From Candidatus Bathyarchaeota archaeon (lineage in GTDB: Archaea > Thermoproteota > Bathyarchaeia > Bathyarchaeales > Bathycorpusculaceae): 64,000 bases of DNA. Location: the NCBI GenBank assembly GCA_963768425.1, contig CAVYHV010000014.1:32001-96000 (forward strand), written 5' to 3'. This document shows, piece by piece, positions 10,354 through 13,045 of this stretch (within the stretch, counting starts at the first letter, position 1; the number at the start of each line of letters is the position of its first letter). The notes under the pieces were generated by a model, which saw only the letters and a list, made by a program, of their open reading frames with translations, was not told the DNA's origin and searched no databases. Made by a program: the position numbers and the translations under genes.

Positions 10354-10654
10354 CAGGGTTTGCCTTCAGCTCTTGCACAAAAATCTCTGATGCCAATTCG
10401 TAGCCCAAGGCTAAGGACGCGCCCCTTACTTCGATTTCTATGGGTCCGTGGAAGCTGCATTTGCGCAGAATTTGAAGTTCGCATCCAGGGGTTAAGCCCA
10501 TCTCGCATAGACGTCGCACAACGTTCTCTTTGCCGGAAGAGTGAGTCATCACGGCTTTGGCGCCTTCCTTTACACACGTTAACGGGACTATGCCTTCCGA
10601 GTTTAAGCAAGGATCTTGTTTTATGCTATGACTTTGTCTACGTCTCAACTGCAT
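10343..10654 (-). CDS. feoA: ferrous iron transport protein A
   Basis: RRLCEMGLTPG...GPIEIEVRG...LALG FeoA motif; directly upstream of feoB. Confidence 0.9.
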   Translation of the reverse strand: MQLRRRQSHSIKQDPCLNSEGIVPLTCVKEGAKAVMTHSSGKENVVRRLCEMGLTPGCELQILRKCSFHGPIEIEVRGASLALGYELASEIFVQELKANPDGN

Positions 10655-11321
10655 AGTCTACCCTCCTATTTCTCCTAAGAAGCACGCAATCCGCAACTAT
10701 ACGGCTTAGCTCTTGCCGTTTTCCATTAATGCGTATATGAACATGTTTTTCGTCTTGTTTCAGAACTTGGATTGATGCTTGGGGTTTGATTCCCTTATCC
10801 TTTAGCATCTCAAGGTTTACGTTTTCTTCGTTAATTATCCTGTCCACGATGTAGCTTTCATTTGAATTTGCCTCGGTTAAGGCTACAGTTGGCAGATCCT
10901 CAATCAATCCTGCGTCGGTGGGTATTGGATTTCCGTGTGGACAAAACTTTGGATGTTCCAATTTCTCTTCTAAGAGATCAGTGACGTTCTTTGACATCGC
11001 ATGCTCGAGTTTGCATGCGTCGGCATGTACTGTGCTCCAATCTGCTTTTAAAATATCGGTGAGGAACCGCTCAGCGAGGCGGTGTCGGCGAATGATGGTT
11101 AATGCGAGCCTTTCGCCTTCTTTTGTAAGCTTGACACCGTGATAAGGTTCATGCCTTACGAGGCCATGGCTTTCTAGATGTTCTATGGTGTTTGTTATGG
11201 AGCCTGGGACAACATGTAGGCTTTCGGCAAGATCTTTAGTTTTTGCAGTGCTGTTTCGTTTTTGAAGCTTGTAGATAATCTCTATGTATTCTTCAGCTTC
11301 TTGTGATAGCGCTATTTCCAT
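10638..11321 (-). CDS. DtxR/IdeR/MntR family metal-dependent regulator with C-terminal FeoA-like domain
   Basis: EEYIEIIY, RRHRLAERFL, ACKLEH, CPHGNPIP motifs. Confidence 0.93.
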   Translation of the reverse strand: MEIALSQEAEEYIEIIYKLQKRNSTAKTKDLAESLHVVPGSITNTIEHLESHGLVRHEPYHGVKLTKEGERLALTIIRRHRLAERFLTDILKADWSTVHADACKLEHAMSKNVTDLLEEKLEHPKFCPHGNPIPTDAGLIEDLPTVALTEANSNESYIVDRIINEENVNLEMLKDKGIKPQASIQVLKQDEKHVHIRINGKRQELSRIVADCVLLRRNRRVDYAVET

Positions 11322-11344
11322 TTTTCTTTTCTTAGCTCCCTAAT

Positions 11345-11388
11345 TACGAGTACTCGTAGTTTATACGAGCTCTCGTAAATTACGAGAG
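11345..11388. promoter_or_regulatory. tandem palindromic operator cluster between the TATA box and start of the DtxR-feoAB operon
   Basis: TACGAG-TA-CTCGTA (11345-11358), TACGAG-CT-CTCGTA (11364-11377), CTCTCGTAA-A-TTACGAGAG (11370-11388); minus-strand TATA-like CTTATATG near 11396-11403. Confidence 0.7.
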
Positions 11389-11519
11389 GTTGTTGCATAT
11401 AAGCATTTTGCAAAGGAATTATGGCTTTCTGAACTCGATTTGAGTTTTCACACCTATGTGAAGTCTCTTATTTAGTTTACCTTTTCCATGTTTCGCTTCC
11501 ACTTAATTCCTCACTTTTC

Positions 11520-11642
11520 CTTTCAGTCGATTGAGGCATACACCTATTCGCCCACACTAAAGAGGCAATATGGCTACGCATCCAGGCTTCCTCAATCAGT
11601 CTGACGTCCACCAATGGGGACAGTGTGAAAAACGAGGAAAGT
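11520..11642 (-). ncRNA. putative bridge/seek RNA of the IS1111-like element
   Basis: Two stem-internal loop-stem domains; loop strands match both flanks (9 and 8 nt) and the predicted circle junction (6 and 5 nt). Confidence 0.72.
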
Positions 11643-12632
11643 TTAGGCCTGATCATAATAAGGGCGCTTATTCTTCAACACTGAATAACAGCACATCAAC
11701 AACTTACGAGCTGCCGCCACAGTAGCAGCTCTTCTTCCTCTTCTTTCTGCTATTCCCTGATACGCCCTCGTTATGGAAGTATTGTACTTGTGAACATGCG
11801 TCTGAGCGGCTTCCACCATTACCCAACGCAGCCAACGGCTGCCCTCCTTAGTGATCCCGCCATGCCTAACCACCCCACCAGAAGCATGAGTAGACGGCAC
11901 CAAACCAGCATAACCACAAAGCCTCTCACCAAACGGAAAACGGTTAACATCGCCAATCTCACTCTTCACTAGCAACGCAGAATAATAACCAATTCCTGGA
12001 ACAGTCATCAAAAGTTTAACATCTTCATCTTCCTTAGCCAAACCCTCAAGCTGCCTAGAAAGCACTTTTATTTCCTCATCAAAAATGTCCATGATCCTAA
12101 GATAAGAATCAACAGACTCAAACTTCAAAGAGCCCAACCACTCAACACCTTTCCTAGAGAATAAACCATGTTCAGAAGGCCACTTGATTCCTTCATACGT
12201 CAGAAAACTCTTAATCTTCACACGAAGTTTGACACGTTCTCGAACCAAGAAAGCCCTTCGCCTCACTTTCTCTCTCAAATCCGACGTTTCTTTGCTTGGC
12301 ACGTATGCAAGCGGCAACGCATCCAACCTCGCCAATTCAGCAATAACCTTGGAATCAACCCGGTCGCTTTTAATCCTAGCCTCCGCAATGTAACGAGTCT
12401 TCTTAGGATGAGAAACCACAACATCAAATCCCTCGCCCGCCAGTTGCCTATAAAGCGATGCTACAGAAGTTGAAGCTTCCATCGCCACCTTGCCCACCTT
12501 AAAGTGAGACAAATACGACAGCACCTTCTCGTTGGTCATTCTCATCTGGTTGATTATTTTTCCTTCAGAATTCAAAATAGTCGCATAAGTACTATCCTTA
12601 TGCACATCCAACCCACAAACAACGGCGCTCAT
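11643..12632 (-). CDS. IS110 family transposase (DEDD RuvC-like + serine domain)
   Basis: GLDVHK, AMEAS, KSDRVDS, TVPGIG, GYAGLVPSTHASGG; probable start ATG 12632 (MSAVVCGLD). Confidence 0.95.
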   Translation of the reverse strand: MSAVVCGLDVHKDSTYATILNSEGKIINQMRMTNEKVLSYLSHFKVGKVAMEASTSVASLYRQLAGEGFDVVVSHPKKTRYIAEARIKSDRVDSKVIAELARLDALPLAYVPSKETSDLREKVRRRAFLVRERVKLRVKIKSFLTYEGIKWPSEHGLFSRKGVEWLGSLKFESVDSYLRIMDIFDEEIKVLSRQLEGLAKEDEDVKLLMTVPGIGYYSALLVKSEIGDVNRFPFGERLCGYAGLVPSTHASGGVVRHGGITKEGSRWLRWVMVEAAQTHVHKYNTSITRAYQGIAERRGRRAATVAAARKLLMCCYSVLKNKRPYYDQA

Positions 12633-13045
12633 AGTATGGCGTGAGCGCCGCCCGCCCTTAACACTTCCCATACCATCAGTCTCCTTCAGGCGCGAATCCA
12701 CGTATAAATTTCTCTGCTAACTGGTTCTTATTTATGCATTTAGTGTTTTCATGTTTTTCTTTTATGTGCCATGCTAAAGACCCGACTCCGCACCTTTTGG
12801 ATGAAGGGGGCGAACAAGAGAGGAACTTGAGCGGTTGCTCGCTTAAATTTCAGCGCAGAGATAGAAATTTTCGGCTAAGCGAGTTAGTTGGCACACTTTG
12901 TTTTTGGCCAAATTCTTCACTATTCATATGTTGGTGTTTAATTGCAACAACAAATGGATAAATCTGCCAACACGACTTTCTTGTTTGAATAATCTTAAGA
13001 ATCAACTTTTGAGAAAATCTTTGCAAGAGGAGCTTATTGTAAACG

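Follow-up and report, generated by a model that had tools for sequence, protein, structure and literature searches.

An archaeal IS1111-type insertion sequence with a predicted two-loop guide RNA that varies with its target

The 64,000-nucleotide (nt) stretch of Bathyarchaeia DNA analysed here, referred to as the window, carries an insertion sequence (IS) of 1224 bp on its minus strand (12676–11453). In all probability this is an IS1111-type element of the IS110 family, composed of a gene for a DEDD/Ser recombinase and, after its stop codon, a gene for an RNA of about 117 nt with two internal loops. What the sequence itself shows is the protein family, the catalytic residues, the ends of the element, the RNA structure, the covariation of the guides with the flanks and with the core, and the uninterrupted targets. 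An archaeal IS1111-type element with a guide RNA 3′ of its transposase gene had been proposed in an earlier note on this DNA, and the protein domains, sub-terminal repeats, downstream position of the RNA and order of its guides described below bear that proposal out.

Possible, and put forward more tentatively, is that a single IS lineage within one genus (transposases 54–96% identical) has been naturally reprogrammed at least five times, with the core rewritten from TG to CG in both loops, and that its RNA, with 3′ strands matching the integrated junctions, is tuned for excision as well as insertion.

The transposase

The transposase gene (11643–12632, minus strand; ATG at 12632, stop codon at 11645–11643) encodes 329 amino acids and lies within a longer open reading frame (11643–12701). 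Matches to both IS110-family domains are found in Pfam (PF01548, E-value 2e-21; PF02371, E-value 2.8e-22), and the NCBIfam model NF033542, ‘IS110 family RNA-guided transposase’, is matched over positions 1–343 of 343 with 233.2 bits, against a cut-off of 140. Relatives with solved structures are ISCro4 (PDB 9t56) and IS621 (PDB 8wt6). An in-frame upstream ATG at 12671, inside the left inverted repeat, would give a protein of 342 amino acids and is open in all target types (defined below); a start there would add a basic N-terminus of 13 residues.

The four acidic residues of the RuvC-like DEDD domain, at positions 9, 52, 90 and 93 counting from Met 12632, align with the GIDVSK, MEAT and KTDAVD motifs of ISCro4. 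In the Transposase_20 domain, the serine of GLVPSTHASGG aligns with that of the RRYESGS motif of IS621 and also with the ESG of ISCro4; it probably corresponds to S241 of the IS621 paper, the numbering offset of the construct being taken as is. The D, E, D and D residues and the serine of GLVPSTHASG are invariant in an alignment of 10 homologues, down to 32% identity. Comparison of the window copy with eight full-length copies gives ratios of non-synonymous to synonymous substitution rates (dN/dS) of 0.06–0.12 (a ninth copy, G057_C15, is saturated in dS and yields no ratio), and the protein has therefore been under purifying selection along the lineage.

Enclosing the AUG of the transposase gene is a hairpin of 8 bp, GGCGCUCA / UGAGCGCC (12624–12649, minus strand). 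Copies of target type D, which are 54–61% identical, carry GGCGTTCA / TGAACGTC instead, with one pair changed on both sides and one pair lost. The hairpin may have a regulatory role.

A second IS110-family transposase gene in the same genome (L019, C30:117286–118257) has both Pfam domains and 32% identity, and is unrelated; the guide-RNA model R1 introduced below found no match beside it.

A predicted two-loop RNA downstream of the stop codon

Directly 3′ of the stop codon is the putative bridge/seek RNA gene, of about 117 nt with two internal loops (11528–11644, minus strand), which scores 108.9 bits with a covariance model of four helices, R1. The same model re-found all copies of the element at 79–119 bits and two decayed ones at 53–63 bits. 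Present in this region are the closing stem UUCCUCG (11639–11633) / UGAGGAA (11594–11588) and the inner stem GUCC/GGAC that the earlier note had described.

The 5′ strand of loop 1, the predicted right-target guide UUUUUCACAC (11623–11632, minus strand), is complementary to the core G and the right flank; the part of it read previously, UUUUCACAC (11631–11623), is indeed complementary to 11453–11445. The 3′ strand, the predicted left-target guide, reads CAGACUG followed by AU (11595–11603, minus strand) and is identical to the left flank and core, its AU corresponding to the first 2 nt of the element; here too the earlier reading of AGACUGAU (11602–11595) as identical to 12682–12675 is correct. 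In the target, the matches of the two strands overlap at the core, and the top-strand match lies 5′ of the bottom-strand match.

Loop 2 follows the ends of the element, as had been noted from its CCAUA (11573–11569) and AUAGGU (11547–11542). Its 5′ strand, GCCAUA (11569–11574, minus strand), is complementary to ATGG (element nt 1–4) or to TATGG (nt 5–9), and its 3′ strand, AUAGG+UG (11540–11547, minus strand), equals the right end followed by the core, the next U being the first base of the right flank.

Comparison among copies supports this structure. In an alignment of 37 sequences fitted to the model, 91.7% of cells pair, against 45–53% when the partners are slid by 1–3 columns, and 10 of the 24 pairs show changes on both sides, which 0 of 500 shuffles reach; the fitting to R1 and the kinship of the sequences inflate these figures somewhat. 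Given a plain MAFFT alignment of 35 sequences and no structure, RNAalifold arrived at both inner stems and, in loop 2, at the outer stem too. Another possible partner of the closing stem, lying distally in the purine-rich spacer, was tested and dropped, as a fraction of 0.03–0.86 of shuffled spacers did just as well.

Base-pair covariation cannot tell an RNA from a fold of single-stranded DNA, and contigs of RNA libraries are unable to show a transcript; the region could then act as DNA, as a binding or synapsis site of the recombinase, and not as a transcribed guide. We regard this as highly improbable. G–U pairs are frequent in the kept helices (UG 35/37, GU 37/37, UG 37/37), and they would be A–C mismatches on the opposite strand. 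Bacterial relatives, moreover, are reported to co-purify with RNA and to need it (PMC11187229; PMC11208160).

Elsewhere in the genome, R1 detects two decayed guide RNAs with no adjoining transposase gene (C9:204603–204713 and C11:312–424; 53 bits each), and a left-end remnant of about 100 nt, of target type B1, lies in a TTTAGCG.CG site (C9:218900–219003). The decayed RNAs and the remnant are what is left of other target types in this genome.

Guides covary with targets among related copies

Copies were sought in 120 genomes of the genus, where matches to part of the element occur in about 30 genomes among the matches listed. Together with a scan of GTDB species genomes, this gave 39 distinct RNA-bearing loci, with guides read in 36, the left flank in 29 and the right flank in 31. 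Related loci point to the Bathyarchaeia, with metagenome-assembled genomes (MAGs) from peat, soil and sediment. A second copy in the genome of the window (33 contigs) lies at the end of contig C13.

The loci represent five target types, written here as left half, core and right half: AGAC.TG.TGTGAAAA (type A, that of the window), TAGCG.CG.CGCTA (type B1), TCACC.CG.CAAA (type B2), TTGT.TG.TTCTT (type C) and CGGCC.TG.CGCGCA (type D). In each, loop 1 carries the left half and core as its 3′ strand, and the complement of the core G and right half as its 5′ strand. At the window locus, the left half AGAC (12679–12682, minus strand) is identical to the 3′ guide strand and covaries with it across the five types, and the right half is TGAAAAC followed by CTCAAATCGAGTTCAGAAA (11426–11450, minus strand).

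Scored over 5 nt, the left half matches its own guide perfectly in 24 of 29 loci (mean 4.76/5), against a mean of 1.10 for the guides of other types. Over 6 nt, the right half scores 4.74/6 with its own guide (31 loci) and 1.73 with those of other types. When the types are permuted, with one consensus per type, only the true order among 120 reaches the observed 46/55 matches. As the copies of one type are kin, about five independent events stand behind these figures, and not 30. The claim that the guides match the insertion site of their own element thus holds on both sides of the target.

Following the target in the same way is the core. Every CG-core copy has AUAGGCG as the 3′ strand of its loop 2, and the TG-core copies have AUAGGUG, apart from the decayed L029 (AUAGGUA). 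By our tally, 35 of the 36 copies whose guides were read have the same core in both loops, and the core dinucleotide is the same in both flanks and both loops at 25 of the 27 loci with both flanks, the exceptions being L095 and L082. As read from the flanks, the base after the core in loop 2 (U, C, C, U and C in the five types) is in each type the one with which the right flank begins. By analogy with the handshake concept, in which bases beside a guide fit the partner DNA once exchange has taken place (Hiraizumi et al. 2024, PMC11208158), this base and the AU that follows the left-target guide may be read as handshake-like positions, and the 3′ strands of both loops would therefore match the integrated junctions.

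One of the two exceptions, L082, is a B1-type copy of 79% identity whose 3.5-kb contig belongs to a MAG labelled as Promethearchaeati (Asgard), which reflects either a transfer between archaeal phyla or a binning error.

Ends and core of the element

Homology among copies at different sites begins and ends with the insertion sequence proper, ATGGTATGGG...CACATAGG (11453–12676, minus strand), and the uninterrupted targets lack ATGG. Within it are sub-terminal inverted repeats: TATGGGAAGT (12663–12672, minus strand), 4 nt inside the left end and kept in all copies, and ACTTCACATA (11455–11464, minus strand), 2 nt inside the right end and invariant at all but one position in 21 right ends. The two are complementary at 9 of 10 positions. 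Non-coding sequence takes up 190 nt between stop codon and right end, and 44 nt ahead of the start codon.

A different geometry had been drawn in the earlier note, with GGT as a 3-nt core at each end, an empty target AGACTGAT-GGT-GTGAAAA and a circle junction CACATA-GGT-ATGGG. All its strings are present on the minus strand, at the left end (AGACTGAT at 12682–12675, GGT at 12674–12672, ATGGG at 12671–12667) and at the right end (CACATA at 11460–11455, GGT at 11454–11452, GTGAAAA at 11451–11445). GGT does stand at both ends of this one copy, 8 nt of the left junction agree with the guide AGACUGAU, and in the junction so drawn the loop 2 strings CCAUA and AUAGGU meet in a shared T. The related copies nevertheless make this geometry very unlikely. 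The copies listed include 15 with CG-type guides, and in these AGGC stands at the right end; the left end, as in every copy, is GATGGT, and GGT is for that reason not shared. What the two junctions do share is TG in types A, C and D, and CG in types B1 and B2. GAT beside the element is invariant in all five target types and is therefore element sequence, not target. A GGT core would also leave a gap between the target matches, whereas the matches of published IS1111 seekRNAs are described as overlapping (PMC11187229).

Judged across the copies, the shared core is a YG dinucleotide. In this copy it is TG, with its left copy at 12677–12678 and its right copy, placed by comparison of copies, at 11451–11452 (both minus strand); these are the sole 2 nt common to both junctions, and B-type copies have CG on both sides. 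The bounding of the element by inverted repeats stands, and the GGT core does not. With a YG core, the boundaries of the element move, and so do the empty site and the predicted circle junction, which becomes CACATAGG-TG-ATGGTATGGG.

Uninterrupted targets give the same picture. The pattern AGACTG, 0–6 bases and TGAAAACT has 105 matches in the 120 genomes (reversed-pattern control, 14 in all forms). The uninterrupted target AGACTGTGTGAAAACT makes up 32 of these, AGACTGTCTGAAAACT another 31, the form predicted for this copy, AGACTGTGAAAACT, is found once, and the empty site drawn previously, AGACTGATGGTGTGAAAACT, has 0 matches. That 18-nt site also has 0 exact matches, and 0 within 1 mismatch, in the window’s own genome. 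For type B1, TTTAGCGCGCGCTA accounts for 5 of 24 pattern matches and the form analogous to a GGT geometry for 0 of 24 (control, 11). By these counts the empty site is AGAC-TG-TG(TG)AAAAC. The right flanks of A-type copies begin TGTGAAAA, TGTGTGAAAA, TGAGTGAAAA or TGTGTAAAAA, which suggests insertion in different registers of the TG run, as the guide UUUUCACAC can pair in several ways.

A palindromic repeat as the target of type A

The A-type site is an arm of a palindromic repeat of about 150–200 nt with imperfect inverted arms of 38–50 nt, and insertions occur in either arm and in either orientation. In the window’s own genome, nhmmer detected 7 full repeat units and 5 solo arms. These counts take in the flanks of both IS copies: one full unit is interrupted by the C13 copy, and one solo arm is the window’s own right flank. 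The loci comprise window 11426–11450, C15:52247–52445, C15:55132–55310, C19:5298–5493, C33:12807–13018, C10:87291–87467, C9:166763–166887 and C13:102185–102333.

Several A-type copies resemble one another over about 26 nt of right flank, and the flanks could on that account be part of a longer repeated unit travelling with the element, the guides then matching internal repeats and not a target. This is extremely improbable: the shared right flank is the arm of the palindromic repeat, which is also present where there is no IS, the left flanks diverge completely beyond 5–7 nt, and copies of types B, C and D have unrelated flanks that still match their own guides.

Adjoining the repeat units is sequence resembling the T arm of tRNAs (GGTTCAAATCCCGCCC-like), and repeat-related motifs number up to 21 per genome in other genomes of the genus. 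The A-type copy of genome G016 lies 9 nt behind a tRNA-Val gene. A search for tRNAs near the repeat copies in the window’s own genome found none, tRNA genes standing only beside the G016 copy and in one other locus; the palindromic repeat loci had no relevant match in Rfam, and an alignment across many genomes, of 29 repeat loci, had too much noise to be of use. Candidates for the nature of the repeat are a miniature inverted-repeat transposable element (MITE), a cassette end or an attachment-site (att) remnant.

A model for recombination, and the mobility of the copy

In the mechanism that we propose, loop 1 would read the target and loop 2 the joined ends of the element, the 3′ strand of loop 2 corresponding to the right end (ATAGG) and core and its 5′ strand pairing with the start of the left end. 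A circular form with the TG-containing junction given above would recombine with the target AGAC-TG-TG(TG)AAAAC at the shared YG core, leaving one core copy per side and no further duplication. The predicted empty allele of the window locus is ...GAAGGAGAC-TG-TGAAAACTCAAATCG. By analogy with IS621, ISEc11 and their relatives, the RNA would be made and bound by the recombinase, the circle would form and the copy would still be able to move.

Facing outward about 12 nt before the right inverted repeat is a conserved AAATA(A/G) box (11467–11475, minus strand). In the circle it would stand about 65 nt upstream of the transposase ATG, and could there be an archaeal TATA box forming a junction promoter.

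Several observations weigh against this account, in addition to the inflated pairing figures mentioned above. Folding of the single sequence, the check proposed in the earlier note, was no better than for shuffles (z = −1.77 for 194 nt and −1.37 for 117 nt); such folding is uninformative here, and the structure test is therefore comparative. Rfam 15 holds no matching family in 11000–13000 (E-values up to 10), the only match, enod40, being a chance one at 15.6 bits against a gathering score of 45. Contigs of two RNA libraries cover related copies at 90–99% likeness, and contigs of this kind are no guide to transcript ends and could have come from DNA. In contigs of two DNA and two RNA libraries, no joint of a circle or an empty site was found, the parts that these leave uncovered being uninformative; no sequencing run contained as much as half of the sampled sequence words. 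The GCCAUA of loop 2 can pair in either of two registers, element nt 1–4 or nt 5–9. In type D, a change of C to U in this strand accompanies a change of G to A at element nt 9 (C–G to U–A), a single event that favours pairing with nt 5–9 or 6–9 over nt 1–4.

The flanks contribute further points of this kind. Matches on the right are imperfect in L042 (3/9), in L032 (an offset register), in L093 and in L036, and L095, 1 of the 29 copies with a left flank, combines a B1-type RNA with an A-type left flank. No orthologous empty site was found for the window copy: G104, which shares the right-hand gene, has different DNA to the left, and no relative keeping both flanking genes adjacent was found in the 120 genomes searched. 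Nor was an empty orthologue found for two other A-type copies, in G048, where the left flank is unique to that genome, and in G095, where it is a multi-copy gene family. Of the outcomes that the earlier note had named as contrary to its proposal, namely unrelated targets, absent covariation and ends mapping elsewhere, most did not appear; the one exception is L095, which stands beside a flank of another type.

L095 lies at a contig end in a genome that also has A-type and B1-type copies, and has a deletion of about 85 nt in the transposase gene, CCAGAC.TG on its left and a B1-type flank on its right. Its mismatch possibly reflects action in trans of the RNA of the other type, recombination between copies or an assembly chimera.

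A genuine element with a genuine RNA could also be a fossil, in which this copy, and perhaps the lineage in this genome, is immobile and the guide matches record past insertions. The only other full copy in the genome, that of C13, is 97% identical to the window copy and its frame is broken after 56 codons, a point that also counts against the mechanism proposed above; besides the decayed RNA-only remnants and the left-end remnant, the missing circle and empty-site joints in the four libraries fit such immobility as well. The window copy, for its part, retains an open frame of 329 amino acids with all catalytic residues, the protein has been under selection along the lineage, and its guides, its ends and the two core copies are undamaged and agree with one another. 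Six further species genomes in the genus (G016, G048, G073, G074, G078 and G095) have A-type copies too, at sites that differ. We consider a fossil unlikely, with appreciable weight left to it. In the earlier description of an ‘intact, compact’ recombinase, ‘intact’ is apt for the reading frame of this copy only, and not for the genome’s second copy.

Flanking genes

Flanking the element are a gene for an iron-dependent repressor (10638–11321) and a histidine kinase gene. Directly upstream of the repressor gene, overlapping inverted repeats of the CTCGTA...TACGAG type (window 11341–11387) have an operator-like appearance.

Comparison with known systems

The element resembles the IS1111 group (ISEc11, ISPa11, ISKpn4 and ISPst6) as described in PMC11187229, with a DEDD transposase of about 330 amino acids that has a GL-P----SG motif, and shares with it sub-terminal inverted repeats, short terminal extensions and a long downstream non-coding region (PMC11187229; PMC11208160); the two-loop plan of the RNA agrees as well, with the second loop compared in part. 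In IS1111 elements, sub-terminal repeats of 7–17 bp are reported, and bridge RNAs have been predicted for 93% of those in ISfinder (Durrant et al. 2024, PMC11208160). Further likenesses to the account in PMC11187229 are a top-strand match 5′ of the bottom-strand match, overlapping at the crossover as in IS1111 seekRNAs, and site-specific insertion into repeated sequences. Membership of the IS1111 clade is thus suggested by architecture. Among the plasmid-record matches listed, the closest named relative is ISHvo10 of Haloferax (35% protein identity), which Siddiquee et al. (2024, PMC11187229) count among more diverged elements.

Unlike the described IS1111 members, this element has an archaeal host, from the Bathyarchaeia, its target is a palindromic-repeat arm specific to the genus, and its core differs among members of the family (TG or CG), a difference that both loops follow, as known here from sequence alone. 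IS1111 members are described as typically homing to repeats, such as repetitive extragenic palindromic (REP) sequences (ISPa11, ISPpu9/10), the terminal repeats of the Tn21 family (IS4321/IS5075) and attC sites; the present element likewise lies in a repeat, here an archaeal unit of about 150–200 nt beside sequence resembling a tRNA T arm.

IS621 and ISCro4, as presented in PMC11208160 and PMC11208158, likewise have a two-loop RNA in which each loop carries two guides that read opposite strands, a 2-nt core in target and donor, and handshake bases, to which the positions noted here are alike; the same two Pfam domains and the aligned catalytic serine are also shared. They differ in having the RNA 5′ of the gene, where it is 3′ here, and the order of guides within each loop is reversed. 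The inverted repeats are of about 10 nt here and of 2–3 nt there, the RNA here is of about 117 nt, and the core is YG as opposed to CT. Sequence alignment with IS621 is significant for the C-terminal half only, and ISCro4 gives a weak N-terminal match as well (E-values of 1e-13 to 1e-14 overall).

A 2024 preprint catalogues 662 archaeal IS110 recombinases (10.1101/2024.06.21.599552). We found no publication that contains both Bathyarchaeia and IS110, and, among the papers listed on archaeal bridge RNA, IS1111 and IS110, none that by its title and abstract opening describes this element.

Implications

What is known of the mechanism is unchanged by this element, and its added value is modest: a five-fold reprogramming series that includes the core dinucleotide. 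The RNA-guided recombinases first shown in bacteria in 2024 gain an archaeal example that is backed by comparison. Five natural settings of guide and target, two of them with a changed core, show which RNA positions evolution has rewritten when the target changed. For Bathyarchaeia, the series aids the annotation of such elements, whose boundaries would otherwise be placed 2–4 nt off, as they were in the earlier note. The element is also a compact candidate for the engineering of bridge recombinases and, if active, would be a small, mesophilic, archaeal bridge recombinase with a freely programmable core.

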